A stretch of 62,154 nucleotides of DNA, filler included, from Hausera hauseri (lineage: Eukaryota), in assembly GCA_046269625.1 (NCBI GenBank). It is 10 parts of 10 records of this genome, joined end to end, with 100 filler letters (N's around TTAATTAATTAA, not from the genome) between each part and the next. Parts side by side here need not be neighbours in the genome. Positions count along the whole stretch, not along the records: positions 38,993 to 43,239 come from JBJURY010678329.1; 9 more parts are not named here. One strand, given 5' to 3'. The number at the start of each line of letters is the position of its first letter. Positions within the stretch are counted from its first letter, which is position 1. Made by a program: the position numbers and the translations under genes. Positions 29,401 through 59,402 of this stretch are shown here, in pieces. The notes below the pieces were generated by a model. That model saw only the letters and a list, made by a program, of their open reading frames with translations. It ran no database searches and was not told where the DNA came from.

Positions 29401-30889
29401 AAGGTAAAGTCTAGTTCAGGTGGATGATGGTACCTTAATGGCTAAGATAGAAGTCAGAAGAACCAAGGATAGAATGGTGGGTTTGAAAGGTGGAGATATG
29501 CGGGTGTGTAGTATGGAGGGTATATATGTGAATGTTATTATAAAAAAAGAAAAAGGAAATAGGAGTAGTGAGCCTGGGGGCGTGACCCGGGGCTGACGTC
29601 GAAGGTGCCCCCTACCGACCAGCTCAGGGTTGGCGGTCGGGACCTCCGTCTTGACGGGGCGCGCAGCAAAATGCGGGTTATCCGAGTTTCCCCTCAAACC
29701 GCGCAAAGTATTCGGTAGATACGTGAGGTTGTTTACTTGTTGTTGCACGTTTTGTAGCGGTAATATTGGATTATGGAACGAATGGAGTGAACACATAGGG
29801 GTCAATGGGTGTAATGTCAGATAAATCGGAGACCTAATTCTTCCAACAGCTGTTAATTTACATATACGCTAAGGAATTCTGAGCGTTATTTGGATAAATA
29901 ATTTATACTTTTCGATGAATTTTTGTGTTTTGTGAATTTTCTAATAAAGAGGTCAACTGCTTGAAAAATATTTCCTCATCTTTATGAAATCAATCGGTGG
30001 TCGTATAGTCTATCTTGTCAACAAATTGGACATGATTAGTGTGAACCCAGCAAGGTAAATCAAACTTATCGTTGGAATGTCTTGAATTTTTTAATAAATT
30101 ACTTGATGAGCTGCTTGAGACATCTAATTGTAGATTATGTTTTTGCTAAAGCCTTTAATTCACATTTTTTGAGTAAAGGTAGCATGAGAATATTTCCGGT
30201 AATAAACTTGTGGGGAACCTGTCTAACGCGTATTGATACATATTCATACATTTCAATTCGCGTATCCTTTCGTTTACTAAGCAATGTAATATTCGTCTTA
30301 CCGATTAGATTGTCGCCAGTCCCGTTGTTCGTCAGCGAACACGATAGCTCATCGCAGAGTCTCCTCAGCCAATAGTTCACATTGGAACTGCGATCGCCAA
30401 ACGAAATATCCACATCTGGGCTGTAATCCGTGGTGACCGCCTGCAGCGTCTGAACGGACAAACTCGCCGATTTCCGGAGCCGTCTCAAATGATCAGTCGC
30501 TGGTAAATCGGCATCGACGTTTTTGTCGATGAGGTCGTCAAATTGTGTAACGGTCGATTCAAATAGCGTTTTACGTTCCATGAGTAAGATGAAATTGGTA
30601 CTGTTGAAATTCAGTTTCAATCCGTACTGGTTCAACGTTACGGTCAACGTGTAAATATTTGTCAGGATATGGCACCGGATTTTGACGCACCATTCGGAAA
30701 ACCAAAGCATTTTGTCGCATATCAAATGCGTAATTGTGGTATAAAAGAACTGCGCTATCATAATCCTATGGATCTGATTCCATACTACCGCATCCCGCCA
30801 GCGACACGAGCAAACTGACGGATGCGGATTGCGGCCTAGGAGATGAATTGACCAAATTGTCGTTGTTTCTCAAGATAATACTTTCCTAC

Positions 30890-31500
30890 TTTGGCAATTA
30901 TCTTTTTCAGAGCTAACTGTAGGGTAGCAAGTGTATTCGTTGAACCTTGACAAGTAAGGCCTTCCAACCCATGCCAGGAAGACGTTAGGTTGGCTTCTGT
31001 AACATCTACCACCCGATCTCTCCAAGGTAGAGCCTTTGTGTTAAGTGCGACAAAATTGACTTTTTATTTGTGTTTTAACTGTTCTAAAATTAGGCAATAA
31101 AGTTGGTCTTTTAAAAAATTAATATGCGGTTCCATGCTCGCACTTGTATCAATAAGTACACAAACATTATCTTCCGTTATAGTATCGAAAAGTTCTCTGG
31201 AACCTTGGCGAAGCCATTCTGTTCTTCTTTTAATAGCATTTAAACAAATAATCATTCTGTCACAATAAAGCCGATGAACATCAGCCGACATTTGCACGTG
31301 AACTAATGTTCTGTCCTTCCATCGTACATGAGCAAATTTATCACAATACTTCCCATTGACTAGTTTTTGATGAGCGATTAAACGTCCACCACACCATCAC
31401 ATTGTCTAAAACAAACTCCAGCAAGTAATCATATATATCAAGCTTTCTGGCTTTTAAACCGAATTTTGATAACCATTCCTTTGATGACATGTATTCTTCT
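30890..31500 (-). pseudogene. VWA3A/VWA3B-like vWA-domain gene fragment, intronless and frameshifted
   Basis: SSKEWLSKFGLKARKL, RRTEWLRQGSRELFDTITEDNVCVLIDTSASM (MIDAS DxSxS), VNFVAL..PWRDRVV..GSTNTLATLQLAL. Confidence 0.7.
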
Positions 31501-32660
31501 TGGGTAGCATGGGGACTGTCTACTCGTACAGTATAATCTGTATTTTCATATTGTGCTTTCTTCGAAGGAATTTGGTTGATAAGGTTTTGAATTTCTGTGA
31601 TTTTCAACTCGTCTCTGATTTTGAATATTGTACTTAAACGAATTTTTGTACATTGTAAAAATTCTCGAATAATATTCGAAATATTTTCCTTGGAATCACA
31701 TTTTTCATGACCAATCAAATTTTGGTTCTCAAAGTACATCATTTGACATATAAAAATGAAATCGTCTGCATTGGAGAGATTCTGATTTAATGAATAGATT
31801 GTCTCATTGCAAAATAAGCACTGTTTTGCATCTTTTATTTCGCGCGATGATTGTGCACAGTCAAATAGTATTAGCACGCGACGTGACAATAAATACGTCA
31901 TTTTAATGTTTTTGGACATATACACTTCAACATTCGGCAGGAAATCTTTATCCGAGTTTTGAACATTATATCCGAAATAAAGCAATATTGCATCTGAAAT
32001 TATGGCAATATTTTCCAAACATATTGATTGTACACGAATTAAATTATCAACATCGTACAAGGGCGTTGCATTCATTGTCGTGTATTTGCGAATATAAATT
32101 TCAATATCATCTGAATATTCAGTCAGAAAAGTATCGATTAGGTCATTGGCCATTTGTTCTTGGAATATAATTTTCCTCGTTGATTCAAACTATTTAATTT
32201 CATACATTGGTGAAAACTTTTCAGAACATTTTTTCTGTACTTCCAATGCAAAATTCAAAAACAATTTTTTATGTTGGACAAACCTTTTTAGAAAATCCGA
32301 CAATTGAATTGGCAGTGCTTTCTGTAAAAATTCTTTTACTGATATTGTCCATTGTACCTCATTTTCATTGCTGATGCATAACAAGTCAGTTGCCCGTATT
32401 CAGTCTAAAAGGCAAATAGGGTCTCGTATAAACCAGTTTTTAAACATTCAGTACAAAACAGATATTGACAGTTTGAAATATTTATCCTTTCAATATTTAA
32501 TAGATCTGCATAACAAATTTGTATGTTGAATCATCATTGGAGGCATTATTTGCTGCTTGAACGAATTCTAAAAGATTCTTTTTAAAGGAATTGAATTTAA
32601 GTTCTGCATCCTGCTTTGATTGCATCTTGAAGAAATAGCTGCAATTTCGAATATATCAAT
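31500..32660 (-). pseudogene. Unidentified decayed coding sequence fused upstream of the vWA fragment
   Basis: ORFs 31341-32153 and 32190-32384 look like broken protein-coding DNA. No motif recognised. Confidence 0.4.
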
Positions 32661-32666
32661 ATAAAG

Positions 32667-33465: not shown

Positions 33466-33526
33466 TTTATTTTACATAAAATTGTGATTTTAAAAACGTG
33501 TAGAAAACGTGAAAAACCAGAAAAAA

Positions 33527-35608
33527 ATGGGAGCTAAAAACACTTCCGAACCGGAGGAGGAGTATATACCGCGCGGCCCGATTGCAGATGAGATGAGACG
33601 AAAACACGGTGAATTTTGTGTCAGATTTGTGCAACAGTGGCATTATAAATTCGGATTTCCAAAACACGGCTCTTTAGAACCGGATCATATTGCACATCTT
33701 GAGGAAAATTTATTAAATCAGAAACAGAGAATGATGGCTCAGAAAAGAATCCCACAAGAACAGATTGTAACAATGCATAATCACGAGGAAGCCTTTAGAT
33801 TATGGAAAAATGAATCAAAAAATTTAATAAATAAAGCAGACTCAAAGATTATACAGATGACCCAGAAAGTGGTGGAGCTTCAGAAGAAAAAAGTGCAAAC
33901 TGAAAAACAAATACAGAAAATTAAAGACAAAGAACAACCTGAAAAGTCTGATATAAAACACAAATGTAACAAATCTTTTTCTGCCTTCTCTTCTGTCTTT
34001 GCATGTACACCGGAGAGCCAAGGACCTCATCTAACCACCCCCTCCACCTCCCTCTACCCATCACTCACTGACCTGCAGCCGCCTCCTTACACACATGAAA
34101 AAAAAGAAACACTCTCTGCACTGAGACCTGTCTGGGCTCTGTCAACCGATGATGATTATGTGGGACAACGTGCAGCTCCTGCTCCAGCACAGCTGGATCA
34201 ACCTCTTCACGGTGCAGGTGCAGCAGGACCAGATCCTCAAAGTTTATCAGGAACATCTGATCCTCAGGTAATGCAAATCACATCAACAGGTCCTCCAGCC
34301 TGGGGAACACGAGCAAAGACAGCTTCTGAGAAACAACAGATGGAGGAAAAGATTGCACAAACAGAGACTGAACTGAAAAAGGCTAAAAAAATGCTGGCCA
34401 AAGTACAAGAAGCAACAATTACACCAGGAACAAGCGCATTACACACCTCTGAGGATGAAGACTCAGAAGAAATATCACAAGATGATAACAGTTCTACTTT
34501 TCCTAAATTACAGGTCCACACTATGCCTATGCTTGAAGTTGGAGGAGCAGATGGACCGCAGCTCGTCTTCAGAACCTGGCCACTCGCTGACCTGAAAGAG
34601 CTGGCAAAACAACACCTCCCAGATCTGGCTCAGGGAGGGCTTGAAGTGGGTACAGCACTCGACCACATGGTAAGAGCCATCCGACCCACCCTCACTGAAC
34701 TCAAACTGGTTCTGTCTTCAATCTATGGCATCAACTTCATCACAAGAATAGGGCCAGAACTGTTTGATGCTGCAAACCTTCAACAGCGCCTCACTGCAGT
34801 TAATTATGATGATGCTGCAAACAATAACTACAGACAAGCCATACAAGCAATTACAACAAAAATTACTGAACAGTATGTACAAAGACCTGAGTATGGAAAG
34901 ATAACAGACACCATACAAGCAGCCCAAGAATCTCCACAAGATTACTTGGAGCGTCTGTTGCAAGTTTTTCGCACTCACTCAGGCATTCCACAGCCAAACG
35001 CAGCTGACTGGCGTTCTGCCGCACAGCCCACTGCATATGAAACCATACTGTGTCAGAACCTGATGAATGGGTTCCTCCCACCAATTAAAAAGAGCATCCA
35101 ATCCACATACATTGGATGGAAATCAGGCCTCCGCCTAGAGGAGCTGATGCGCCATGCACACCATGCATGGGAACAACACAATGCAGAAGAGGCTCAAACT
35201 CAAAGAAAGAAGATTAAACAGACTGAACAAGCTCAACTCACACTTCTTAAAGCTGCACAACAAATGACTTTAAACACACAGCCTGCACAACCAATCCCAC
35301 ACGCCTCACGCCACTTCCAGTCATATGGGCCCGACCGACCAAGTCCATTCTACCCAAATGGTCCTCAGCCATGTTTCCTCTGTGGAGGAACAGACCATTG
35401 GGCACGTGAATGTCCTTTAAAGAGAGGCCCTCCAAGAGGAAGAGGAGCCTACAGAGGCCAAAGCCGCCCACACTTGAGCCCACAGAACAGTTATCCAAGA
35501 CAAGATCCATCCCAAAGTCCACAGAGACATCAGCCCAATGCACCACAGCATGGCCACAGCTATGGCCCACCTAGAGGCAGAGACAATTACAGAGGTCATT
35601 CTACCTGA
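33527..35608 (+). CDS. gag: Gag of an epsilon-like/class I fish-type endogenous retrovirus
   Basis: MG start, PSxxLYPSL and PPPY, MHR-like QAAQESPQDYLERL, CCHC knuckle CFLCGGTDHWAREC. Ends TGA-CTAG. Confidence 0.92.
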   Translation: MGAKNTSEPEEEYIPRGPIADEMRRKHGEFCVRFVQQWHYKFGFPKHGSLEPDHIAHLEENLLNQKQRMMAQKRIPQEQIVTMHNHEEAFRLWKNESKNLINKADSKIIQMTQKVVELQKKKVQTEKQIQKIKDKEQPEKSDIKHKCNKSFSAFSSVFACTPESQGPHLTTPSTSLYPSLTDLQPPPYTHEKKETLSALRPVWALSTDDDYVGQRAAPAPAQLDQPLHGAGAAGPDPQSLSGTSDPQVMQITSTGPPAWGTRAKTASEKQQMEEKIAQTETELKKAKKMLAKVQEATITPGTSALHTSEDEDSEEISQDDNSSTFPKLQVHTMPMLEVGGADGPQLVFRTWPLADLKELAKQHLPDLAQGGLEVGTALDHMVRAIRPTLTELKLVLSSIYGINFITRIGPELFDAANLQQRLTAVNYDDAANNNYRQAIQAITTKITEQYVQRPEYGKITDTIQAAQESPQDYLERLLQVFRTHSGIPQPNAADWRSAAQPTAYETILCQNLMNGFLPPIKKSIQSTYIGWKSGLRLEELMRHAHHAWEQHNAEEAQTQRKKIKQTEQAQLTLLKAAQQMTLNTQPAQPIPHASRHFQSYGPDRPSPFYPNGPQPCFLCGGTDHWARECPLKRGPPRGRGAYRGQSRPHLSPQNSYPRQDPSQSPQRHQPNAPQHGHSYGPPRGRDNYRGHST

Positions 35609-36601
35609 CTAGAAAGGGGGAGTGGTGATGATGGTCCAGAGGCCCAAACTCCAGGTGTACATACACACACAGCTCTGAACACACCCATCTCGACTGCATA
35701 CACTTACCTTAAATACATTCAAGCAGCACACAGGAAGTTACCTATGCTGGCAGTAACAGTTGAAGGGGTCACACTAGATTTTCTGGTGGACTCAGGAGCA
35801 ACACAATCCCTTATAAGGCATGACTGTTTCCCTCATGCACCTCCCAGTGGACAGACAGTCCTCTCCACAGGAGCATCAGGATTAGCAGTCACTGAACCTT
35901 TAACTACTCACTTAACCTTGATTGATCCTTTTGATAAAACAGAACACAAACATCAGTTCTTACACTCAAAATTGTGTCCAGTTAATCTTTTAGCTAGGGA
36001 TCTGATGTTAAAAATGAACTTGACCATCTCATGCACTTCAGAAGGACTTCTGGTGTCCAAAAACATGGAAACCATGTTTTTAGAGACTCCTGACATCCTT
36101 TATGTCTATGAGTGGCTATTGACAGACCAAGACATGAACACACGCTTTGTTCAGGAAGCAAAACAAAGGCTGTTAACAACAACAGATTTTATGTCTCCAA
36201 ACAAGCTCCACTGCACAGCACACGTGACTCCTAACAACACTGATTTAGGTAGCTTGTTTATGCAAACAACACCCACTGGACTACAGATTACAGATCTGTG
36301 TTGGACTAACACTTGTTGTTTCATACTTGTACATCTAACCACTGACCAACTTGAGTTTTTCACTGTTCCAGACTCTTTCCCTCACATCTCATTAGCAAAA
36401 CACACGAGTGTCCAGTGGTCATCCATAGGCCCACACGCACTGTCTGCCTATCTAGCAACAGACTGGCAAGAGCTATGGCAAGGATGTTTCTACTCTCCTT
36501 CTTTACAGATGCACAAACAATCCATGGGTTTTCTTTCACCACACTTCTCCACTGTGGAAGTGACACCCAACCTTGAAGTGATAGATGCATCATCACAATG
36601 A
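35609..36601 (+). CDS. pro: Retroviral protease plus 2H phosphoesterase-like domain, in frame with gag
   Basis: FLVDSGA and NLLARD protease motifs, then LHCTAH and PHISL HxT/S motifs. Confidence 0.85.
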   Translation, partial: LERGSGDDGPEAQTPGVHTHTALNTPISTAYTYLKYIQAAHRKLPMLAVTVEGVTLDFLVDSGATQSLIRHDCFPHAPPSGQTVLSTGASGLAVTEPLTTHLTLIDPFDKTEHKHQFLHSKLCPVNLLARDLMLKMNLTISCTSEGLLVSKNMETMFLETPDILYVYEWLLTDQDMNTRFVQEAKQRLLTTTDFMSPNKLHCTAHVTPNNTDLGSLFMQTTPTGLQITDLCWTNTCCFILVHLTTDQLEFFTVPDSFPHISLAKHTSVQWSSIGPHALSAYLATDWQELWQGCFYSPSLQMHKQSMGFLSPHFSTVEVTPNLEVIDASSQ

Positions 36602-38892
36602 CTATCTTTGGTTAAGCTGACCATTGATGATCCACTTCTGTCTGAAGTTCCCAACACATTATGGGCTAAAACAAAATATGATGTAGGGTTAATTAAAGGT
36701 CAAGAACCAATCCACATCACACCTAAATCGTCCTACAGACCAAAAATAGCTCAGTACTCACTGAAGCCTGACGCTGTAGAGGGCATCACTCCAGTATTTT
36801 ATTCTCTTTTGGAAGCTGGTGTAATTGTTCCCTGTCCCACTTCACCAGTGCGTACACCGATCTTTCCAGTAAAGAAAATACGCCCGACACCGCCTGATGA
36901 ATGGAGATTTGTTCAAGACTTGAGAGCTGTCAATTCAGCTGTCCAGGCTCGAGCACCGATTGTTCCAAATCCTTATGTCATCTTGTCGCAAATTCCGACA
37001 GGCTCCACCCACTTTTCGGTGATTGACTTGGCAAATGCTTTCTTTTCTGTTCCTGTCCATGAGGATAGTCAGTTTTGGTTTGCTTTTGAGTTTTTAGGTA
37101 AGTCTTACACCTTCACACGCCTTTGCCAAGGTTATTGTGAGTCACCAACAATCTTTCATGGAGCACTTAATGACAGCTTGGAAGGATTTACATTACCACC
37201 TGAATGTGCTCTGTTACAATATGTTGATGACTTACTTCTGGCAGCACCAGACAAGTCTACTTGTGAGATACACACTATTCGTCTCCTGCAGTATTTGGCT
37301 CAGGAAGGACACAAAGCATCACTGTCCAAATTACAGTTTGTACAGCCTGAGGTCACTTTTCTTGGACACAAAATTACAGCTAATGGTAGGGAACTTGCGA
37401 GCACTCGCGTTGCAGCCATTGTCTCTTTACCTCTACCGGTGACAAAGAAACAACTTATGTCATTTTTAGGACTGTGTGGCTATTGTAGACATTTCATTCC
37501 TAACTATGCAGAACTCGAGGGCCCTCTTAGATCCATCTGTCATGAAAAAGGCCTACAAATGAGCTCTAAAGTTACATGGACTGATTCAGCTTTAACTGCT
37601 TTTGAGACTTTGAAAAAGCAGTTACAACAAGCACCCACCCTGGGCATTCCAGATCCACATCGTCCTTTTATCCAGACGGTGGATGAAAAAGGGGGATGCA
37701 TGACTTCAGTTTTGCTACAAAAACATGGTGACCGGCTTAAACCAGTTGCATATTTTTCAGCAAAACTTGATCCAGTAGCAGCAGGTCTACCTTTATGTTT
37801 GCGCGCTGTGGCTGCTGCAGAAAAATCAGTATTGGCCAGCAGAGACATTGTGGGATACTCTGATTTGACCTTGCTTGTACCACACTCTGTCACACACATT
37901 CTAAACGAACAAAAGACAGCTCACCTGTCTACTGCGCGATGGTTAAGGTACCACACTACATTATTGGACATGCCAAACATCACTGTTCAACGTTGCAACA
38001 TTTTGAACCCAGCTACTCTTCTTCCAGGACCAGACGATGGAACACCACATGACTGTCTTGCAGAACTTGAGATCTTATGCACTCCTAGACCTGACCTTTC
38101 ACAAGAACCTTTACAGGACCCTGACTGGGAACTTTTTGTTGACGGATCTTCTTCACGTGACCAACTCACAGGTCATGTTAAAAGTGGTTATGCTGTTGTA
38201 ACCTCTACTGACATTATTGAAGCTTTACCTCTTCCATTTTGTTCAGCACAGGCTTGTGAGCTTGTAGCTTTGACACGTGCTTGTGAATTATCTGAAAACA
38301 AATCTGTTAACATCTACACCGACTCCAGGTACGCTTTTGGTGTTGTTCATGACTTTGGAGCACTGTGGAAACACAGACGTTTTCTCCGCTCAGATGGACA
38401 CCCAATCTCAAATCACAAACTTGTATCTCGACTTTTAGATGCAATAACTCTTCCATCTTGCATTGCTGTGATCAAATGTGCAGCTCACACCAGACGTACA
38501 GACCCCATCTCAGAAGGAAATGACTTTGCAGACACAGCTGCAAAAAATGCTTCACTTTCAACCACACCTGATCCAAACACATTGTCTTTAACCACTCTCA
38601 CAGATCAAACCACTCCTTTTACAATCACTGACCTTCAGAAACACTCCACCTCAGCTGAAAGGGCTGAGTGGAAAAAATTAGGTTCCACATTCACAAATGG
38701 TGTCTGGTATGGTCCTAACACAAATCCTTGCTTACCTAAACATTTCTTCCCTACATTTGCATGTTTGACACATGGTATTGATCATGTGTCCAAAGGAGGG
38801 ATGTTAAGAGAAATCAACACACACTGGTTTACTGTGAAGTTTTTGAAAACTGCTGAACAATACTGTGACTCATGTCTGATCTGTGCCTCACA
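36602..38892 (+). CDS. pol: ERV reverse transcriptase, RNase H and start of integrase (cut off by contig end)
   Basis: WRFVQDLRAVN, IDLANAFFS, LCQGYCESP, QYVDD, FVDGSS, YTDSRY, HGIDH..CLIC. Confidence 0.95.
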
Positions 38893-38992: not shown

Positions 38993-39760
38993 TTTTAAGT
39001 GCTGTTGAATCGTCTACAACAGTAAGCAATGCTTTGATGGAAGAGGGTAAAGAGAAAAGGAAATACAAACGAAGATCGACAATGTTTGTAGGAGTGACGC
39101 CTAAGGCACTCGATTGAGAAATAGAGGTTTTAAGAAAATCAGACGGCTTTTGAGTTCCAATAGCATGCTCATTAAAATATTTTTGTATGATATTGTCGAT
39201 TGACGGATAGATAATATGTAGGACCGATTCGTAGAGCATGTCATATGAAGTTGAAGAAGTTAGCATCTCAAAAAGATCGATGATTTTTTGTTTTATTTGT
39301 GATGGAAGGAGTAGTAACAAACTGTTAGCACACAGAAAAGAGTCGGTGATGTGGTTGGCTTTAAGCCATTGGAAATGAAATTGTAGCCAGGTAAGGCTAG
39401 AAGTGGTCTTATCTAAAAAGAAATCTACACAAGGAAGGTTGTGAGAAGCAGATGGTGTAGATTCAGCAGGGAGACGACCAGATTTACTTTTGGTGGAGTT
39501 TTCAGCATAAGAAGGATCGGTGTCTAATCCACCCCAGATGAGCAAGTGGAGAGTAAGGTGGATGATTGAAAAAGAGAAGGAAGAATGTCGATCATAGACA
39601 TTAAGGATAGAGCCATGATGCGATAGATAAAAGTCTGAGGTGTGAAGCAATAAGGCCAAATGAGTGTAAAGGCATTGTGCACTCTCTCTGTATGTCGCAC
39701 TGAACGTATACTTATTATTAGAAAAAACCAAAAGGGAAAGGGGATGTAATGCAGCGCGGG
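38993..39760 (-). mobile_element. Gypsy gag 5' part, same family as 24340-29400
   Basis: FFLDKTTSSLTWLQFHFQWLKANHITD parallels YFIDNEKSSKTWLHFHELWLQANGITD. GTQKPSDFL occurs in both. Confidence 0.85.
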
Positions 39761-40429
39761 CGGGCATGCTCGGTCCCTCAACCAGACAATTTCTTGATTG
39801 CGCATGTAGTTTGAGTAACATTTCATTATTGTCAGGAGAATTATAATCCCTTTGTAATGGTGGTTGTGGTGATGGTGATGATCTTTAGTTGCTTACATTT
39901 CGACCGAAATCATTAAAACCGGGACCACTTCTCGATGAAGACAGATCTTTCCTAATAATGACTATCATAGTTCTGAGATGTCATAACTCTCGTGTGAATT
40001 ACTAACGTTTTTCGAGATTTAAGATGATGGAATACCGATATATGAATATCTATCATAATTACCTTTTAACGATAACGACTCGGGCAATCGTTCTTGATAT
40101 TTTTGTGTCAACTGAACTAATCCCACTAAATCATAAACAGCTTTGACAGATTGTGGATTGCTTCGGTTCGGATTGGTTAGTGCATTTAGCACATTGGTCA
40201 GTACATTTGTATGTGCCTTTCCAAACCGATTCATGTACAGTCTTATTTCGCAATTGTGTACAATTTTTGAATTAAATAAATAAGTGGACAAGAAAGCTTC
40301 TTCAGCAGACACGAATTCGGCTGGTCCGAATGCACAGGAATTACTATAGTGATCGGTTTTTAGTTCACCAATTTTCTCTTTAAATATGTCATTGAGTTCC
40401 TTCATAGAAGTTGTAAAAGTAAATGGACG

Positions 40430-40760
40430 TTGTCGGCAAGTAAAACGGAGCTCGATTTGTTTATTGCATGCATTGCAAGCATTCAGAACGGAATGTTTCT
40501 GTTCCATATGTAATTCGTAACAGAAACAATGTCGAGAATTTAGAACGCCGCAAAGACGAGAATTTCAAATGCTTTTCTCTTGCTAAGCACAGAAATTTAT
40601 ATCTTCCATCCATTAAATCGCTACTGACTGATGGAGATGGATCATTAATTGGAGGCAAATTAGCAGGATCACTTTGCGTGTGAAGACGAATTGCGAAAAA
40701 ATTTTTCTTTTCGTTTCTCCATCAATTCTAAGATTCTTCTTGAAGCACCATTAATAATCA
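40430..40760 (-). pseudogene. CREBBP: CBP/p300 fragment (end of HAT domain to start of ZZ finger)
   Basis: MEKRKE..FFAIRL..LPPINDPSPSVSSDLMDGRYKFLCLAREKHLKFSSLRRSKFST, then CNACNKQIELRFTC after a frameshift. Confidence 0.88.
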
Positions 40761-40849
40761 AGTCAATGTCTTTCAGAACAATTCATAATAGTTTAGTCTT
40801 AGAATCCTGAGAAAATTGTAGTTCAGATCTACGTATATTTTGATTGCGA

Positions 40850-41280
40850 CGATCAATATTTTGAAGATCAGTAAAAGGTTTTCCTTTATCGTATATATTA
40901 TCGAATCGTGGAGCTACCAACAAAATACTATTTGGCAGATATTTTGAAGTGAATTCTTTATAGAATGCCATTGTCAATAGAGAATACATTCTTGGTCGAT
41001 GATTTACAATTGGAGTTAATAATTCCGTGATGACGTCTCTCGCAGACGGTCCAATAGAAGATGGTCAACCGAATTTGACAGTCATTTTCGTAGATTAAAA
41101 TTTTTGCCAATTTTAAATTATGCTAAATGACTTTTTCTTTGTGCAAACAGCTGCATGCATTGGCAATTTGCGTCCTGAAATATCGCGTCTGGGCTTCCGT
41201 TATTGATTTTCTGCATTTGTGCAGTTCCAACAGCGACTTAAATATGCACAATCCCAAAACAATATAATAAACTTGATTCT
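40850..41280 (-). pseudogene. PLK1: Polo-like kinase fragments with internal deletion
   Basis: YIVLGLCIFKSLLELHKCRKSITEAQTRYF..LHKEKVI*HNLKL..TVKFG, then RPRMYSLL..YLPNSILLVAPRF. Confidence 0.85.
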
Positions 41281-42331
41281 CTCTCTGCACCGAAATGACT
41301 ATGGGAGCAGAAAATCTCCGCCAGCAAAAAACAAACGAACTTTCAATGATCTCTTCAACGTGAATAACGATGAGATTCAGTTGACTTGCGGACGATTCGT
41401 CGTCGGTATTTAACTGATTTTTATTAACAGACGCATTACGCGACTGAAAACTTCGTATTTCTATACCGTCCAATGAAGTATATGTACACTTTTCCTCATT
41501 TAAAGACAAATTATTATAATGTCCACTTCGACGTCGTATGTCAGTAATTCTGGTCAATGGCAAATTATTTTTCATCTGATGCGCACTGATCTGAGAGTCT
41601 GGATCGATTTCTTGACGGATTGAATTATTGTTTACGTATGATATCTCAAGGGCGACTACACCATTCCAAATATTGCTTGTCGTGGACTTTGTGCTTTCCA
41701 CTGATAACAATTCGATAGCCATGTTAGAATCCTGAAAATATTTCCAGAATCCTGATTCAGTGACGACCATGATCATGATGTCATCGACATTAATTCTAAA
41801 TTTGTGAGCTATATTTGCACGAACTGCACAGGGCTGGCAGTGTTTATCCACATCGCTGCAAATATTTGTTGTCCTTCATATATTATTGTCCTTTTCAACA
41901 AAACAATAATACAACGGCTCCATTGTTTTAGCTGGAACTGGAAGACTACGGCAAAGATTCGGTTCCAATTTGTTCTGTCGAGTATGACAATTCGGCCAGA
42001 CAATAACCAACTGTTGATATGTGGCGAAAATCGAATGACTTCAGGAATTGTTCTGGTTGACGATTTCCTGCGCTTCGAAATACAGAATATTTTTTCTCGG
42101 TTTTTTGACTTTCTTCGGTTCAAAAACGACACCGAATTTCATACGTTCGTGGCAATAGTTGAATAGAAACAACAGAAACTCCTGGGCATCCTGTTGATCG
42201 TTGCTTTGGAAATTGCGTTCGGTATTTGACAATTCCAAACGGAAATCATTGGACAACGAATTACAGTCGACTTGTGACAACCAGAGACTTTTGAGAAACA
42301 TGGAGAATTTAGTTAACAACATCGAATTCAT
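41281..42331 (-). pseudogene. USP31/USP43-like ubiquitin-specific protease fragment
   Basis: FLKSLW..SNDF..NDQQDAQEFLLFLFNYCHE (QQD box). Later segments ESGFWKYFQD and RRFSAPIVI recall USP31/43. The catalytic Cys box is absent. Confidence 0.7.
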
Positions 42332-42369
42332 AGTATCTGAATTTTTCGGCGATTTGCTATCTTAATTCT

Positions 42370-42382
42370 ACTTCTGACACCA
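42370..42382 (-). promoter_or_regulatory. tRNA-Leu-type primer binding site (copy 2), preceded by CA-AAT; candidate LTR 42386-42593
   Basis: Minus strand reads ...GCCA AAT TGGTGTCAGAAGT. The upstream AT-rich tract has AATAAA and a TGT start at 42593. Confidence 0.7.
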
Positions 42383-43339
42383 ATTTGGCTCCAGTAATAA
42401 ATCCAAAACTTAGTATTAAGCCTTTATTAAATTTCAAATCAACATAAAATCCATAATCTAATTAACAAATTTTTTGTACTATACGGAAATGAAAAATTGG
42501 CTAATTACAATTTATCATGAACTGAAGATGAACAGAAACATTAAGAGATAGAAAAATGAATTTACAAGAAATCCTGATCAAATGATAATCACAATATTCC
42601 GAAAATATGATTTTTAACCAATATTTCTCAAATGTTTGTAAGTCAGTCTAATTTCATCATAAAACATAAAATCAGGATCAATGAGTAGAAATAAACTCGG
42701 ATACTCTTTGAATGAACTTTGCATCCTGTACGGGGATTCTGAGGATTTTATAATAATCTTTATTATCTGCCTTATATAAGGTTTGTCATCGGGACTGAAT
42801 TGAGGGAATGTATCTAAGACTGAGTACAACGTGCAGTCCAAACTCACGAGTCAAAATCCTGACCGATCGTAATTTGACATTTTCCTTAAATGCTTTCTGT
42901 GTTAGATTACAAAATAACATTGTGATAATCAATGAAAGATCATCTTCAAACTCTTCACTCTTGAGCAAATTACCGATCGTTGCTCCCGATACAATCAATG
43001 AGCACTTTTAACAGATATGATCGGTGTTGCATAAGCAACGGCCGGTTTTTGTGTTGTTCAAGAAGCATTTTGGCCAGCGATTTATCCACTTCGTCAATAC
43101 GCAAAATGATCGTATACATTTTCAGAGCAAGTAGAAGAACAGCGACAAAACCCACTACTGAACACGGCATTGACTGCATCCCAATCATCGCCATTTTGGT
43201 GTGGACACGAGTTGTGTCCGCGACCGCGACACCTCTATANNNNNNNNNNNNNNNNNNNNNNNNNNNNNNNNNNNNNNNNNNNNTTAATTAATTAANNNNN
43301 NNNNNNNNNNNNNNNNNNNNNNNNNNNNNNNNNNNNNNN

Positions 43340-43340
43340 C

Positions 43341-43406
<66 letters not shown>

Positions 43407-43423
43407 AACAACAACAGCAACAA
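43340..43423 (+). repeat. (CAA)n microsatellite at contig start
   Basis: Seen directly in the sequence. Confidence 0.95.
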
Positions 43424-43890
43424 AAGGAGAAGGGACGACTTTGCCTTCCGAAGGTGCTAAAAGCTGCTTGACGCTGAAATTAAATAGCTATAAAAAACTA
43501 TGTGGCGTTAAATCCCCAATGTGGAAACTGGGGAAGTTTATTCTGATTTGACTTACTTATTGTGTGTTTTTGATTGTGATTAATAAAAGTATTTGAGTTT
43601 ATGTTTTGTATTTTAGTAATACTGCATTTGTCAATGTATGTTGGTAATAACAGGTCATGAAAAATGATGTGTAGCGCGTAATTCGTTTATGTAACATTTC
43701 CTTCCAACTTAAGCTTCATTCCCTTGTTAACTTAAAACTACGTAAAACAAAAGGCAAAAACAGTGTACAAAATACGTTATTGAAATATAATACATGTACA
43801 ATAGAAAAAAATGAGGAAAATCACAAATTGTCAATACTCTGGCTGGACTCTATTGCATATTTGAACTGGCCTGTCGGTCCATATTTTATT

Positions 43891-46800
43891 TCAAATGCCA
43901 ATGCCCATACGCCCAACTCTTATTTCGCCCCACCCACTTTCGCTTGTCATCGCTGCATGACAAAGCAATATTTTTATTTTGATGGTATACAGATGGTGCT
44001 CAATCGATCGTATAGTCCTTTGAGACACAGCAGTCTTTCCTTCTTCTTCTTCTTGTCTATCATAGACACGGCGATAATCACCGTTAATTATTTCCGTCTG
44101 TTTCAGATGGATGCTTTTTGTCCGCATTTTCGGCCCACAGTCTGTCAGAAGACTGTAACACTTTGGGCACAAAAATATCCATTCCCTGTATTGAACCCGG
44201 CCTTCACTTTCGTCCTTGAAGCAGTCGATTTTGTTTGTTACCACGCTTCTGTACAGTAAATGGTTCTGTGAGTAGCTGGACGTGTCTAATAGTCCACCTG
44301 ACATCATTTGGTCTCGATTGATGTTTTTCAGCTTAAGAGAAAAGCTGTCTGTGTCACCAGCAACGATAATGGTCTCACAGCCACCGCCGCCGCCGCCGCC
44401 GCCGCCGAACATTTGCCGGTAACGTGCAATACTGGAGCTCGTACATTCGCAACTTGCTTAGGTACAATACGACGTGTCTGATGTAGCTTGATCGGTCCAG
44501 TACGAATTCTTCTTTGCTTAGAAGCATGGCGACCAATCCATCGGCAATGTGCATTGACCGCCTAAACTGATCCATGCTGGTGTACGTAGCCAGTCCTTTT
44601 TCGTTGTTGCACAGGCGCACATTAAGCCAACTCTTTAGATTTTCCACTGTTTTCCCACACAGTGAATACTTTTTGAACTTGTAATAGTCCTTTTCGAACT
44701 TTGCGCAAGCTGTGGCTCGTTTCCCTCAATTTCCATCAATGTACGCCTTGAATATTGGCGCCTGATTGAAGCGGATTGCATGATGCCGCTGTGGGACGCG
44801 TACACCGAGCTGCATGTAAAACTGCACTAGACACCAATGAACCACGTAATTTGATTTTGGTTAATGTGTCATGAGCAGCTTCTTTATTTTTGAGCCGCCG
44901 GACGGACATTGGCTAATTGGTGCGACCGGCAGTTCATCCAAACAATCATGCAGCTCATCTGATACCACGAGATCGACATCCTCGAGATCGACCTCCTCCG
45001 ATTGAGCTGTTTTCAGCTGTTGTTGTGTCTGGCGCCCTCAACAAATTTTCCAGTATTGTGTCCAGGTCTTGTTTGTCGACTATCCATTCGAATGAACCGT
45101 ACGGCAAGGGTTGTGAAAGCGCCCAGCCGTACAGGTTATTAATATCAATGTACAACATTGACATTGTATCATCATCGTTATCACTGGTTATGTGATGTTT
45201 GTTGACAAATGTCATGCCGCCACGAATACCAACATCAAACAGTCGGTATATTTCGGGGTCTTGCAACAGCTCAATTTCCCTGTCCAGCGACATTAGTGCT
45301 GATGCTCAACTCATCCCCAGTATGGAGTAAAAGTTTAGCGGCTCCAACCTATCTTTCGCCAACGCCTTAGCACGAAATGTCTGAAACACATCGGCTAAAT
45401 AGTACACGTCCAGTTTCAGGTACTGGAGCATGTACTCCAACATGTTTCTGCAGCCAAGCTCTGTCCACCCTTCCTGTGCTTTGTGGTGCACGTCCTCTGT
45501 GATTCCGGCCCACTATGGCGGCAATTCATCTGTTGTCTGAAGCCGCTCGTACGACACAGCAAAGTCATACGGGAATATGCCTTTGCTGCGTGCAATATTC
45601 ACGGGGAACTGCGTCAGTGTTAGCGGCACATCCGGCAAGGCATTTACGAGCTTTGCTGCAAGCTCATTGAGGAACTGCAATGAATCAAGAAATCGTACCT
45701 GAAACCGCTTTATGCGTGCCGATAAGGACAGGTACTTTTCCATCGTTGTTCGGATTATGGATATCTCCAAGTGTGGAAATCTGTTGATAGCCCATTTCAG
45801 AATATGGTGACAGTCATAACCCCTGAAGTTATGAAATGTCACCGGCAGGAATGGCCGCACCCGTCTTGCCAAATTGCATTAATTGCATGCTGCTCCGAAG
45901 TATCGACCAGTGAAATTATCGTGATCCGGTACTAGCCGTTCCTGTGCATCGAACGGCAATATTTTGCGGCACAGGTAACATTTGTCAGTGGCAGCGAAAA
46001 GCAGTGGTACATATTCGTCTGTCGAGACCAAGGGTTTATTAGTGCTACTATTCCAATACCACGGCGCGATTTCCGTTTCCACTATTGCCTTAAACTGATG
46101 CAGAAAATCGCGGACACAGTTCCATCCATGAAAAACGTAGTATTGTGGTTGTCCATCGGCTTTAATTGGCATAACCAGCATTCCAACGGCGATTGGGACA
46201 TACTTTTGGTCGTAGATGTTGTGCCGTGGTAAAATTGCCTCGATATCAGCATATACCACATATGCCGGACTGTCGATTTTTGGCCAGTCACTGAATCTCA
46301 TTTCCTATTTGATTGGCACGACATACATTGTTGTTCCTGTTGCATTTCTCCTGCACAGCGCCACATGCTTTTCCAATGTAGACATATGGGACACCATTTG
46401 CAGTGTATGCGTTTTTGGACAAAGTGATCATGGTCCATGTTTAGTAGTCTATCCAAATTTGTTACTGCCACATAATGAAAGTTTTCTGCATTCTCCAACA
46501 GCAACAAATTTACTGGGCGTCCATTTAAGTTCCGACTGTGGTAGATTATGTCTACATAGGGATTTTTGTATATTTCTTCATCTGTCAGTATCTCTATAAT
46601 TGTGTTGGACCGGAACACGTTGATTACCAGTGTCGGATTACGCCGTTCAAAAGCCGCATTGGTTTTGAGTTTCATCTGCATCCAACATACGTCGTAGTCC
46701 AATTCTGAGAAATACTTCCTGTACTGCTTTGGACAATTTGCATGTCTGGACACTTGATAATATTTCAATATGGCCAGAATGATGTAAACAAAGCAGTATT

Positions 46801-47815
46801 CGTCGTTAGTATTTTGTACATTCACTACAGCCAGAGACTGCTTCAAGGATGCAGGTGTCGGTATGAATGAACGTCCGGACAGGTAAATCATGTCACTCGA
46901 CTTAATCAGAATAAAACCGAGAGTGATAATTTTTACAATTCGCCAACCACTGCCCTTTTCAGCGTACTTGGCGATTTTTTCGTCAAGCTTTTCACCTACA
47001 TCGGCAACAAAATCCTCAGAGTATGGTACGGCTCGATGTGACAGGTACCATTGTTTCCTGTCACCCTGCAAATTTTCAAATTCTGCAAGTGCATAATATT
47101 GCACTTTGCAGTCGTGTTGTTGGAATTTGGTTATCTCTAATTCCAACCGGTTATGCGCATTAGCGGTATATCTTTCAATTGCGTCGCTGTTTTCGCCGAC
47201 ATGTACACCTTCATGTCCACGTACGATCTGTTCAGGTCGTACTTTACAGTAATGGGCGGTTCATGTTCCTCCTGCTGCTGCTGTTTCTGACTTCTGTTGT
47301 TTTGAAAGTATTCGCCAAGGCTTGCTGATGCTTGACGTTTCCTGCTGCTGCTGCTTCTGGCTGCGTCCATTGATGTTTCCTTTTTGGACCTCTGAAACTG
47401 GTTCAAGTGGTCCATGTGGTTGTTGTAGAATTGTTCATAGTTGACTTGTGTCTCAACTACAGAACAACCGAGACATACATAGGCCCGTTTACCATGCACC
47501 GTTGTCGTTGTTGTTATTGTTGTACTATAGTACTGCTCTATTGCACTATGGCAACCATTAACATCATACACCTTACAAGTGCAGTAACGTGGGTATGTGC
47601 GGCAATGCACATGCATGATCTTAGACCGCGTGAACAGATCAAGATGATGCTTGTGCATTTCATAAAAGTCGGCGTACTAGCATGTGTTTTGAATAAAACA
47701 TACGGGACACAGGTACGTGTCCTTGGCCACTGAATAATATTTGGCAATTTCCATGTGGCACTGTCCACCCTCATGTATGCGGGAGACGGAATACATGGGA
47801 TATTGGGAACATTCC
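43891..47815 (-). pseudogene. Polinton/adintovirus-type protein-primed PolB, frameshifted (copy 2)
   Basis: Collinear with copy 1: KGSGW, YADIEA, FHNFRGYD, KGIFPY, GIRGG, LYIDINNLYG, SLCGKTVEN, AGDTDS. (GCC)n expansion at about 44383-44407. Confidence 0.9.
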
Positions 47816-48124
47816 TGAATGATAAACAAATTAAAGTAAAAGTTAAACTAAAAACAAATAAAAATGTATTAATTANNNNNNNNNNNNNNNNNNNNNNNNN
47901 NNNNNNNNNNNNNNNNNNNTTAATTAATTAANNNNNNNNNNNNNNNNNNNNNNNNNNNNNNNNNNNNNNNNNNNNAGTTGCGAGTAAAAGAAGAAAAAAA
48001 GAAGAGCGAGAAAAAATTATGCCTACTAGCGAAAGAAATGAAGAAGCTTAAGGGGCTTAGGTTAATTACAAAAATAAGTTATTAAAATGTATGGTTAATG
48101 TATATTTAAGAAAATCCACAAAAT

Positions 48125-51100
48125 CTAAACAATTTCATCTAATTTTGTTTTCTTTACATCACCAAGATCTTCTTGACTTTCTTCCTTTCGTTTCAACGAC
48201 GATGTTTCATTGATCGTCTGAAATGATGAGTAGATTGTATCAACGTATTGGCACATGTGTTGAACATTCTCCATGTAACATATACGAGATGAGTCAACTA
48301 CATCTGTAACCATTCTCACTTTGACATCCTCTCCAGAAAGAACACGGTTGACATCCGAATAATGCTCTTTGGTCACCAATGCCAATTTGGTCGTCCTCTG
48401 ACGCAGAATATTAAAGGAACCTTGTAATTCCCGACATTGAGTAAACAAAGAAACTCTACAGAACACGTATAAACCAAGTCTAGCACGAGACATAGCGACA
48501 ACTAAACGTCGAATATCCCTCAAATGACCAACAGATTTCGTACGTACCAATGACAAAATAATATAATCATTCTGTTGACCCTGAAATCGATCAACTGTTG
48601 TAACAATACTTTGTGATTCGATATCACCGCATCGTTTCTTAATAATATCTCGAATCAAATGTTTCTGTCCATTGTACGTCGTAAGGATCGTGATTTTATT
48701 TGCCGGATATCCAATTGCTCTCATATACATATACATTGCTACGCAATATTCGGCTTCAGCAATATTCTGAATAAAATGCGGTGTTGGTTCCGATTCGCCT
48801 TGACCGAGATAATTTTGTACATCAATCAATTGATAATCATACAACAAACCAACATTAGCAATCGAATATTCGACATTATGATGAATACATGGCAAATCCT
48901 GTAATAATTTATAACGCCAACAATACAATTGACGCAATGATGAACGTGATCGACCTTGGGCATCTAATTGAATAAAGGGTACCGATAATTTAATCAGACG
49001 ACTAAACATTGATTGACTCATATTACAATAATTTTGAAAAGTCATATTTTTAATAACCGGCGGTAACTGATTATGATCGCCAATCATTATCCAACGTTTT
49101 AATCGATTTAATTTTGATTGATCGGGTTTTTGTAATAATAATGGAATAAATGTTTCAATTTCAAGTATTTGTGCTGCTTCTTCAATGAGAATATTGTCAT
49201 ATGTAAAATTTAATTGTATCAAATCCCGTCGACGTAATGCGCTGTGTGTACATGTCATAGCGATAATTTTTGCATGTTGAACTAACAATGAATGGGCGCG
49301 GGCTAATCCGTTACGGATTAATTCAAATGAACGGAAATCATCCAATTGACAGAAAATATCAACGAGATGACGAAAACAACCGATGGCAATTTCCATATCA
49401 CTGGCAAATGACACACCGGGGAATAATTGACGAATGGATTCAGCCGATTGGAATTGCAATGGAATAAAGAAATTGAGAAATGGAAATTCGCCGACGAATT
49501 GATCAATTGTCAACGAATTGGAATATTGATCAAATTGACAAAACGATTTCTGGAAATGCAACCATCGAGGCATAATTTCCGACATGAGAAAATGTTGAGC
49601 TGTTTCACAAGTATACAACGGTTCGTCACGGCTTTCAGTCGGATTCAATTCGATACAGCCGAGACTGGCAGATAATTTCTCAACTTCACCAAGTAAATAC
49701 AGCCGTTTCCAAAGAACGAAATTCACTCGGCCGTATTTACTGAAATCCTTCGTTGTTTCCAGTGCTTCTTCTCCATGACCGAGACGCAACAGATGTCGTT
49801 CATCGATACCGAGGTTCATAATCTTCTCAAACAGCTGATTCAATGCCTGATTACTGTGCGTGACGATTAATGTTCGCTGATTTGGATAATTCCGATAGAT
49901 ATTGTTTATTATCTGCACAGCAACATCCGTTTTTCCTGTACCCGGTGGACCGACAACCAATGTCAATCCGTGTTGCATACCCGACCGAATTGCCTCAATC
50001 TGAGCTGCTGTGAATTCAATACGATTGCCGGGCACCTCGATAGGTTTATCCGGCAGTCTGTCGAATTGCGACCAGCGAAGGGGATCGGTAAATTTCTGTG
50101 CCAATTTCAATTGGGGTTTGTACGGTTCAACTTGCAATATCGGACGATTGACTGATCCGTCTGTTCGATTTTCCGTCGATTTTAATGTCCGATCGTTTTC
50201 CGGTAACGGGAATACTAATCGATACGGCGAGATGACTGGCGAACTGTCCGCCAATTTGATTTCGTATTGCGGAAAACTTTGTCGCAAATGATCCAAATTG
50301 AGGAAAGTATCACCCCAATCTTGTTTGGCAATGTATTGAGACGTCATGGTCGAATAATGGGCCGCTTCCGGCCTCTCGTAACCGAGTAACAAATCCTGTA
50401 GCCATTCCGGTACGACAAATTGATCGTTCATCAAATCTCGAATCGTTTCCAGTACCGCTTTAAAATTATTTTCCTTCGGTTTCCGTCTCATGAAAATGTT
50501 GAAAGTGCTGTAAACATCTTTCGTTTCACTGTCATCGTTGATAACATCATCATTGTACTGACATGGATCCAGTTTCACTCGCCACGTTCTTGTCTGGCCT
50601 GGTAAATTCGCCAATTTCGATCGTTTCTCTTCTTCTGGAATAATTCTCCCGTTTTTGTCGAGAATTCCTTCTATTTCACACCCACGCACGTACAACAAAC
50701 CGGCCTGTGACGCCATCGATTCACGATTGTTGAATCGCTGTCCGATTTTCAATTTCGGATAAACGGTAATGAGAAAACACGGATCGTGTTTGGCGAGACT
50801 TTCCCATTCTCGACAGATGACATCGGAACAATTCAACACAATCGACACGCCTGCACTAACGACCCGTGGATAACTGCAGCCGATTTCCGGTTTGCAGACT
50901 TCAACAATTTGAAATCCATCAATGGGCATTGCCATTCGAGACCAACCGTGGAATATCGTCTCACCATTCTGCAGTGGACAAATGACGCTCAAACAATGCT
51001 CAGTGTCCTGTTTGATTTCGTAGGCTGTTTCCAATCGGAGCAAATCGAAATTTCTCATCAAATAATCATGAAATGTCAAATATTGCACACCCAAATGAGG

Positions 51101-52279
51101 AATTGCAAAGTTCTGTAACGTTGAAGAACGTTTCTTAAACGAATAGGAAAACATTCAGATTAAATAATCTTTGGAATAATTAGCTTTATTTGTCGTCGGG
51201 ATTAAACTGATCAAACTCGCCAAATCCTGCAGATCACTTTCGTTTTGTTCCAACAAAATCTTCATTAATTCATTATTTTTCTCCAGCCCATCACAAATCG
51301 TCAGCCATAATTTCCGTATCGGTTCTTTAAACGATTTAAATGCTTCCCGTTGCAATTTCAACAATTTATCACGATGACGACATTCCAATTCGGAATCCGT
51401 CAACGAATTACCCGATATTTCATCAATTTCAAAATTAACGTAAAAATCCAACATTTCCAACAGTTGACAAAAGAGTTTCGTTTCGTCAGATTTTCTGGAC
51501 AATTGAGAACGTTGAGCACGAACTATCATGTATTTGTCTTCGATAATAGCGTTCAAATATCGTCTCGTTACGAGCATACTTTCTAAATTGATAAATAACA
51601 CCAAAATATTCTCAAAATAATGCAACATTAACGAATCAAAATTCGAATTATCAAACGAATCAACAGATTGTAGAAAACTGTCAATTAATTTCGGTAAAAA
51701 TGTCCGTTTAAATTTGAAATTATTTACATCAGGACTATTTTGCTTTTCATCATGCTTCAACAATTTCCCATATAACTTCTTATAGTGTTTACTTTTCCCC
51801 AATTCTTCGTTTAATCTCGTCGTTGATAAACAGGTCCTCATTCCAATTGACAACATTTGTTTTAATTCATCAAAATTCAATTGATTTTCAGTCATGATTA
51901 GAAAACAATTGTAGAACAATTGTTCCAAAGTCCGCTTTTTAACACTTACAGAATCATCGTTATCATCAACTGGAGCTTCTATATCGATAATTAAATACAA
52001 AGCTCGTCGGAAAAGTGTACGAAAAACAATTTCGCTTGCGCATAAAACTTCCCATGGATTGACTTTTTACTGAGTATTTTATTGACAATTACACAAACGG
52101 ACAAAACAATTTCTTTTCAGAAATTTGATGTGAGATTTGGCCAAAGATATTTCTCTAAATATTGGGTAAATTCGACATTTTGAACTTGTTTATGGGAAAA
52201 TCCATGGCGTAAAATTTATTCGTTGTATATTTGAATGACTGTAAGTAATTGGCTTAGTAATTTCATCTGAATTATCCAT
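48125..52279 (-). pseudogene. AQR: Aquarius (IBP160) spliceosomal SF1 helicase, intronless; 3' 1009 codons open, 5' part disrupted
   Basis: EFTQYLEKYLWPN, YLTFHDYLMRNFDLLRLE, RRKPKENNFKAVLETIR, GPPGTGKT, EEAAQILEIETFIP, IGDHNQLPP, TVDRFQGQQ, RRLVVAMSRAR. In-frame stops at about 52217, 52118 and 51156, plus frameshifts. Confidence 0.95.
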
Positions 52280-52285
52280 ATGAAA

Positions 52286-52298
52286 ACTTCTGACACCA
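52286..52298 (-). promoter_or_regulatory. tRNA-Leu-type primer binding site (copy 3), preceded by CA-AAT; candidate LTR 52302-52443
   Basis: Minus strand reads ...ACCACA AAT TGGTGTCAGAAGT TTTCAT ATG. Confidence 0.72.
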
Positions 52299-52440
52299 AT
52301 TTGTGGTTAATGTGATAATGAAAGATGGTAAGTTATAAATTCCATAAAAAACAGGAAGGCTGATAATTAAAGTTTTCATTAAACTACAGATCCTTTTAAC
52401 AATTGAAATCAATTATCTTTAATCAATGTTTTTTTACTAT

Positions 52441-52500
52441 ACAATATTTATATACATAATATTTATATACACAATATTTATATACAATATTTATTTATAT
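52441..52500 (+). repeat. Short AT-rich tandem repeat (ACAATATTTATAT)
   Basis: About four imperfect units. Confidence 0.7.
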
Positions 52501-53009
52501 AATAATACTCTTCTGCCTGCTAGAAGGGAATATTGTAGAAGTGTGAGATGACGTCAATATCTTTACAAAAGTTATTTTCAAGGACATTTGGTAAATTTGT
52601 AAATTGAGGAAACACACTGAATTGTCGAGATTGTCATCCAGGAATAATGGATAGTAGAATATTTTTGTTGATGTAGGTCTATAAATCTAAGACGAATGGA
52701 TACAAGAACTGATGACTTCCCATAACATTTTGTCTGTCATTACATGAAAATATCTGGAAACTGGCCTTTCAGTGCTTTTATCACAACTTACATGACTGTA
52801 TTACATTCATCATATTGACTTTTTAACATCATACTATTTATCGTAAATTTCAGAAGCCGTAAATCCAACAGTTCCTAGCATCGTATCCAAAATCGTCAAG
52901 CTGAACATTGAGATATTGATCCGTTGTTTGCTTTCTAAAATGAGAGTGTTACATGTTGGCGAGATTGCTATTTCCGCTTGAAGTTGAATTTTTACCTCTG
53001 AGGGAAAGA

Positions 53010-54327: not shown

Positions 54328-55249
54328 NNNNNNNNNNNNNNNNNNNNNNNNNNNNNNNNNNNNNNNNNNNNTTAATTAATTAANNNNNNNNNNNNNNNNN
54401 NNNNNNNNNNNNNNNNNNNNNNNNNNNGAAAAAGTGCACGAACCACAGGCCAACACCCTCTGGCTGGGGAAAATCCAGTGGGTGTTATTCCCACTTCTCT
54501 CTAGCTACAAAGTTTCTGAGAATAGCTTAATGTTTAACCTGAATACGTTGTTCACTGGTTTAAAAATGTTCCTTTCTTTGATCACGCAGATTTATATATT
54601 CCATCCATTGTCGTTAGTTTTAAAGAACCACACGGAGTAGTAAAAGTGAACGTAAGTCACTAACAGCTCTACACAGATTTGATGTGTTTACGCTGCGATG
54701 CTACAATGCTTGAAATTTTATATACCACTCTTTACTAATTTTGCAAATAGTCAAAAAATAATGTTTTATGCATTAAGACCAAAAATCGGATATTCATTTG
54801 TTCTAATTACATATCTTGACCTCGTTGCCATGGATCTGAACTATTATTACATTGTTTTATTTTGGCTTCAAAATAATAGTAAAACTGTACTTCGGCTCCA
54901 GGGCAACAAGGTCAAGTTATATTATTTAAACAAACCAACGTCCTATTTTTGCTGATCACTCTTTATTGAGCGATGAATTACTCCAAGAATTCAGTTTATC
55001 AGAATTTTCCGTTTAACAAGCAATACTGGAAATTTTTACATTTTCTAAGTATTTGCTTGAATTTCTTTGATTTCGGATTTTCACGGTAAAATTTCTTCAA
55101 ATACATAAGTAGTAGGATTTTTGTTTTTCTTTTATAAAATTCGATTTTGAACTGGCGCGTTTGTGTGAATTTCATAATGATAGTGCGCATATTTGAATAC
55201 ATTGTGTATTAAAAATTTGTATTATACACAATATCACATTCGCTATTTA

Positions 55250-58190: not shown

Positions 58191-58233
58191 TCAGAATTGG
58201 TTCATATATTCATACAAATTCAAATAATAAAAG

Positions 58234-59400: not shown

Positions 59401-59402
59401 CA

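Follow-up and report, generated by a model that had tools for sequence, protein, structure and literature searches.

Pieces of several host genes between the primer-binding site and gag of a decayed Ty3/gypsy element in the Hausera hauseri assembly

INTRODUCTION

How could pieces of at least three unrelated conserved genes come to follow one another, almost without spacers and all in the same orientation, within 2.5 kb of DNA? The question is raised by a contig (JBJURY010678329.1) of the Hausera hauseri assembly GCA_046269625.1, for which a preliminary description had proposed that the pieces were joined by serial template switching of a reverse transcriptase between co-packaged mRNAs. The contig is the seventh of ten, each 4.2-9.4 kb long, that are linked by N-TTAATTAATTAA-N into the stretch of 62,154 nucleotides analysed here (the window), which is not one locus. 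Positions below count along the window. The mosaic of gene pieces is found in contig 7 (38993-43239, GC 0.37), whose words were found in two sequencing runs, X1 (0.68; possibly the source data) and X2 (0.13; another study). No RNA run was listed among the matching ones, a result that bears neither way on expression.

RESULTS

The mosaic lies inside a Ty3/gypsy-type element

Read on the minus strand, contig 7 has the order LTR-like end, primer-binding site (PBS), USP31/43-like piece, two PLK1 pieces, CBP/p300 piece, an anonymous open frame, leader and Ty3/gypsy gag. All features of this contig, and of the two sister elements described below, are on the minus strand.

The element begins with an LTR-like region (42385-43239), of which the first ∼40 nt alone are similar to the stretch behind the polypurine tract of contig 9 (local score 33, reached by 0 of 1000 shuffles); no such match was seen to contig 5, where 493 of 1000 shuffles reached the score. 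Since the start of the region resembles sequence past a polypurine tract, we read 42385-43239 as a putative LTR. Neither a second copy of the region nor a target-site duplication was found within contig 7, which ends within gag, and none of contigs 5, 7 and 9 contains both ends of its element. The LTR-like regions of the three contigs (23937-24470, 42400-43239 and 52301-53033) have only their first 20-40 nt in common and contain protein-like frames. That of contig 5 gave a weak PHM7_cyt match (E 0.008) without backing from the PDB, and domain search found no host cargo within those of contigs 7 and 9; going by these frames, it is possible that cargo also entered the LTRs.

Directly after the LTR-like region comes the PBS, TGGTGTCAGAAG (42382-42371), which is complementary to tRNA-Leu(CAA). 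The identical 12-mer has been reported as a Leu PBS (PMC8905726), and a tRNA-Leu(CAA) probe begins with it (PMC7997516). A 15-mer around it occurs three times in the window, where 0.0003 occurrences are expected. We considered a spliced leader for this motif and dropped that reading, because in contig 7 the motif precedes the middle of a gene.

At the other side of the mosaic, a leader (39528-39773) with a GC-rich stretch followed by a pyrimidine tract is common to contigs 7 and 5, with an alignment score of 56 where 200 shuffles reached no more than 40. It runs into a gag frame (38994-39560) that is truncated by the contig end and that matches the gag region of contig 5 in tblastn (E 8e-27). 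The gag frame of contig 7 has no Pfam match of its own, an Rfam search of the contig gave no match, and gag and integrase queries found no relative among the viral contigs scanned. Contig 7 thus offers the PBS and gag of a Ty3/gypsy layout, and the full order PBS-gag-RT-RNase H-integrase-polypurine tract is present in the homologous contig 5.

Identity of the gene pieces

The first piece (41282-42361) starts within ∼10 nt of the PBS and has a single frame with two stops, at codons 107 and 162. It matches the Pfam family UCH (E 2.4e-9) and, in a full HMMER search, 67 representatives at E≤0.001; word-index protein searches with this piece and with the PLK1 pieces returned nothing at that threshold. 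When ten proteins including P0001 were looked up, six of the nine top matches were named USP31- or USP43-like. Alignment to a profile built from 22 homologs extends as far as the motif directly before 41281, and a further match of a USP31 profile, at 43110 (E 0.48), is taken as chance. The linker of the piece is 139 residues long, as compared with 52-88 in six of the seven homologs that have both flanking motifs (463 in the seventh; 21 examined); the excess of 50-85 residues over the measured homologs could hide an extra piece or an in-frame intron. At 41875, sibling sequences of high depth are 13 letters shorter, and at 41821 one of them is four letters longer; the copy in the window may be locally frameshifted at 41821-41875, beside the stop at codon 162.

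PLK1 is represented by two fragments in different frames. Fragment 1 (41066-41281), from the hinge to just before the DFG motif, matches the human PLK1 kinase (E 2.7e-13) and contains a stop at 41125. Fragment 2 (40757-41065) covers the kinase C-terminus and probably the linker. Its match is weak (E 0.3) and ranks below three DNA ligase matches, and its lower end was placed by a sibling contig of the CBP piece. About 78 PLK1 codons are absent between the two fragments (∼163 to 242 of chain 4j7b).

Fragment 1 reads through the site of human PLK1 intron 1, at 41237|41236. The human intron follows c.408, i.e. codon 136, as given for the variant c.408+3G>A (PMC8354858), and we took the residue numbering from Leu130, Glu131 and Cys133 as they are cited in PMC12183085; the Plk1 gene of a flatworm is stated to have seven exons (PMC3386946). 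A second PLK1 copy in X1 (record 8, 217 nt) has nine differences in 112 aligned letters and aligns from 41238 down only, leaving 66 letters unaligned upstream, and positions 41238-41237 are AG, directly before the serine codon aligned to human Ser137. These alignments hint at a spliced-RNA origin, with an intron of the parental PLK1 gene at 41237|41236 that may have been lost in the cargo. We count this as one hint, since it is read from the break point alone and was spotted afterwards: the chance of a break exactly at the intron site is ∼1 in 216, for a coincidence noticed after the fact.

The CBP/p300 piece (40430-40756; E 4.4e-18) comprises the end of the HAT domain and the first part of the ZZ finger and is frameshifted. 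Both of its ends are fixed by siblings: among the X1 contigs listed, there are three in which the ZZ finger runs on in frame past 40430 (by hand translation) and one in which CBP extends upstream of 40756. The open frame of 410 nt that follows (40019-40429) gave an RRM-like lead, an Atlas RRM_1 cluster at 0.89, ranked third beneath two unnamed archaeal clusters. The lead was not confirmed by Pfam, NCBIfam or the PDB, which gave no match or, for the PDB, no convincing one, nor by a structure model (pLDDT 41.5), and a uS7 match (E 0.03-0.26) is taken as chance.

These searches bear out what the preliminary description had read from the sequence, namely that USP31-like, PLK1 and CBP/p300 pieces lie in one orientation and in the sense of the PBS, and that PLK1 jumps from the middle of the kinase to its C-terminus. 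Its two in-frame junctions were also recovered: the USP/PLK1 join at 41281 lies inside an open reading frame (41123-41875), and the CBP/anonymous-frame join at 40430|40429, within the ZZ finger, inside another (40019-40564). Because stops and frameshifts interrupt the USP, PLK1 and CBP pieces, one intact fusion protein is ruled out for the cargo of contig 7.

Reads across the junctions and sibling copies

Whether the joins are carried by reads, as the preliminary description had asked, can be answered in part. Two of the five joins lie within exact X1 contigs, USP/PLK1 in one of 413 nt (41075-41487) and PLK1/CBP in one of 240 nt (40626-40865), while the PBS/USP, PLK1-deletion and CBP/anonymous-frame joins are unbridged among the pieces listed (16 of 772; 8 of 37). 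Exact pieces from the second study, X2, lie at 40032-40275, 40953-41047 and 42012-42273, and no join is bridged among the 8 of its 20 records that are listed.

Diverged siblings of the stretch are numerous (728 records in X1). Among the matches listed, 8 sibling contigs differ from the window at 40484, 6 at 41991 and 12 at 40130, and siblings depart from its order at 40661, 40436 and 41352; one links 40174 to 41619 via 40 other letters, omitting PLK1 and CBP. The USP, CBP and anonymous pieces therefore occur with different neighbours in sibling contigs. One of the two donors was seen at two of the joins. At the PLK1/CBP join, on the single side that can be compared, differences between the two sequences reach as far as the join itself. 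Differences in depth between pieces were left out as a measure of copy number.

Two sister elements carry host-like sequence at the same place

The sister element in contig 5 (23937-32685) has its PBS at 32677, followed by ∼3 kb of cargo, the leader, gag, RT, RNase H, integrase and a polypurine tract. Its reading frames are broken, and its gag has the CHCC motif CX2HX9CX3C. Its cargo (29900-32666) contains one or more anonymous frames, a piece matching VWA_3 (E 3e-5, short of the curated cutoff), which we take to resemble VWA3A/B, and further frames without a name; it is probably a second multi-gene mosaic.

The sister element in contig 9 (47976-54327) consists of an RNase H/integrase remnant, a polypurine tract, a 735-nt LTR-like region, a PBS at 52298 and a near full-length copy of Aquarius (47976-52298) whose ATG, at 52279, is 7 nt past the PBS. 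The layout is that of a tandem array or of collapsed LTRs. Over 1365 aligned residues, the Aquarius copy has no insert of more than four residues relative to its closest relative, and it has one internal stop (51157) and N-terminal frameshifts. A quick tree places it with protein P0001 (68%), the two on a long branch that is separate from 20 named animals, in a set that includes no flatworm, rotifer or myxozoan; a metagenome scan gave distant Aquarius loci only. As a control, we looked at 80 Aquarius loci of other eukaryotes: 57 have intron-like gaps and 23 have none, some of them on long DNA contigs. Since 23 of 80 loci lack an intron-like gap, the absence of introns is by itself weak evidence for an RNA origin.

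Taken over the window, this PBS is directly followed by host-like sequence in all three contigs that contain it, a count from contigs that may be a selected set and that gives no genome-wide rate. All five identified genes (USP31, PLK1, CBP, Aquarius and VWA) are in the sense orientation (sign test, 0.03).

Other contigs of the window

A retrovirus-like gag-pol (33494-38890) lies on another contig, which is CpG-depleted, and does not bear on the mosaic of contig 7. That contig (32786-38892, plus strand; CpG 0.43) has gag, protease and pol frames with single stops between them and is cut in integrase. Another CpG-depleted contig (13931-18328) carries a frame that we take to be Helitron-like. 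Together, the two contigs suggest that DNA of a second, vertebrate organism is present in the assembly. Contigs 9491-13830 (plus strand) and 43340-47875 (minus strand) carry a broken gene for DNA polymerase B, presumably of Maverick/Polinton type, in two diverged copies that are 77-92% identical in blocks. Satellite DNA fills 18429-23836 (68-nt units, ∼80 copies, higher-order spacing). Contig 1-9390 has an exact 77-nt terminal repeat, which suggests a circular path in an assembly with k=77, and a Cys/His-rich frame of 521 residues (6987-8549) without a Pfam match. At 54428-62154 there are nested inverted repeats and broken frames, which we assume to resemble a second gypsy pol type and a mariner transposase.

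DISCUSSION

Here, we have followed a mosaic of gene pieces to its place in an element, and found that sense-oriented pieces of identified genes lie between PBS and gag, that the PBS-cargo layout is repeated in sister elements, and that the pieces have other neighbours in siblings. We think it probable that contig 7 holds the first portion of a Ty3/gypsy element, now decayed, in which the stretch between PBS and gag was filled from spliced host mRNAs by template switching, over several rounds of loading and reshuffling. In such a process, host mRNAs would be packaged together with the element RNA. Minus-strand synthesis would leave the element RNA ahead of the gag leader and copy an mRNA toward its 5′ end, and the reverse transcriptase would return at the PBS, which must be copied for synthesis to finish. 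The slot between PBS and gag would tolerate 2.5-4 kb, because the conserved leader adjoins gag and not the PBS. Loaded copies would be transcribed again and recombine with siblings, so that pieces could be stacked and parts, such as the middle of PLK1, deleted. The original proposal of serial template switching survives in part. Its core, the capture of RNA by an LTR element, agrees with the PBS, the gag, the sense orientation, the reading through the intron site and the two sister contigs; a single serial run fits the siblings less well than loading over several cycles, and their differing neighbours lead us to favour stepwise loading and recombination.

A wider reading, which we put forward tentatively and with some doubt, is that there may be a CsRn1-like gypsy lineage with a cargo slot, which would keep gag-pol, routinely load host mRNAs (up to the ∼4.2-kb Aquarius) and perhaps load its LTRs too, and swap pieces, so that much of the gene set would circulate as amplified and shuffled fragments.

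The cargo might instead have been acquired in the manner of retroviral transduction, in which read-through transcripts of an element lying beside or within genes are spliced into host exons and one later recombination restores the 3′ part of the element. In contigs 7 and 9 the cargo does begin no more than ∼10 nt from the PBS, with a GT after the first 11 letters of the PBS in both, and the PLK1/CBP join of the CBP sibling has an AG right before it; yet the GT is absent at that PBS site in contig 5, the CBP/anonymous-frame join falls inside the ZZ finger, where siblings run on in frame, and the 24 sibling letters that precede the PLK1/CBP join, read by hand, form a GC-rich stretch that stays open in frame and do not look like the end of an intron. 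Three or four unlinked genes would also need as many insertion sites, and we regard transduction as unlikely. Capture at the DNA level, by which break repair or Helitron/Pack-type elements would have put intron-poor gene pieces into the leader, seems to us more unlikely still. It could draw on the long USP linker, which could conceal an intron, and on the intron-free Aquarius loci of other organisms, but it is hard to reconcile with five of five genes in sense, with cargo that reads through the PLK1 intron site and with an Aquarius copy that begins at its start codon beside the PBS. Nor did we find around the cargo the terminal inverted repeats or duplications that would frame it in a Pack-MULE, Pack-TIR or Helitron; there are no terminal inverted or direct repeats, only short pairs at chance level.

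With so many diverged siblings in X1, no listed piece that spans the stretch and three joins unbridged, the contig could also be an assembly path through sibling copies whose long-range order exists on no single molecule, and the PBS that follows a 3′-type LTR in contig 9 is what two collapsed LTRs would be expected to give. Such a path switches copies through shared words only and so creates no new gene-to-gene joins, whereas two of these joins lie within the exact contigs of 413 and 240 nt and a second study has exact pieces at three places; we judge an assembly mosaic to be improbable, and if anything slightly more so than DNA-level capture. The least probable account, and one to which we attach hardly any weight, is that separate retrocopies made by a LINE were inserted into the leader one after another. 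Pieces without introns would be expected in that case too, but the minus strand of contig 7 has no run of at least eight A, the pieces are internal coding parts and not 3′ ends, and flanking duplications are absent.

Capture of host mRNAs by an LTR element, the reading we prefer, has precedents. LTR-mediated retroposition in animals yields partial mRNA copies within an LTR element, with further rounds of retroposition, and chimeras of two to four parental genes, including a two-gene case in Drosophila and a four-gene case in mouse, are described by Tan et al. (2016, PMC5131818); microsimilarity at 25 of 29 junctions is given there as a hallmark. As with those retrocopies, parts of a single LTR element lie on either side of the host pieces of contig 7, the LTR-like end and PBS upstream and the leader and gag downstream, and the pieces have neither a poly(A) tail nor a LINE-type duplication. 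In the Drosophila set of that study, the retrocopy replaced part of the element ORFs in all cases, which is a trait of the set and not a stated requirement; in contigs 7 and 5, by contrast, the cargo precedes gag, and contig 5 has all of gag, RT, RNase H and integrase behind it. In maize, the LTR element Bs1 contains parts of three host genes that are unlinked (PMC5131818 and PMC13317346), and contig 7 resembles it in carrying pieces of several unrelated host genes; however, Bs1 is a transcribed and translated chimeric gene, while the cargo of contig 7 has stops and frameshifts. The locus in contig 7 is a dead copy with decayed cargo.

As to the family of the element, a CHCC gag motif marks the CsRn1 clade of Ty3/gypsy (PMC2582038), and contig 5 shares with CsRn1 both this motif and the pol order RT, RNase H, integrase. 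It differs in that the PBS is complementary to tRNA-Leu and not tRNA-Trp, no tRNA-Trp-type PBS motif being present in the window, and in the 2.5-4 kb of host cargo after the PBS. Changes of PBS are known inside a related flatworm clade (PMC12471100). By gag motif, we file the elements as CsRn1-like only. The planarian Burro elements are likewise invertebrate gypsy elements with host-like sequence added; they are enlarged by host-like domains within an intact polyprotein of ∼5000 residues (PMC6431247), whereas the pieces described here are decayed, lie outside gag-pol and differ between elements. The capture process and multi-gene chimeras are thus already known, and what differs here is a recurring cargo slot ahead of gag with the coding region behind it. 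A literature search, made on listings and with subscription journals largely outside its scope, turned up no paper on gypsy elements that have host sequence in the stretch from PBS to gag.

Gene capture by LTR elements in animals has been described mostly as single events that replace element genes. Cargo at one place in three of three sister elements suggests a lineage in which capture is routine and the coding region need not be lost, and in such a lineage many junctions would let the template-switch model be scored. The amplified pieces of essential genes such as PLK1, CBP and Aquarius might feed small-RNA silencing or new chimeric genes. They also carry a warning, as gene counts would be inflated in genomes that carry such elements.
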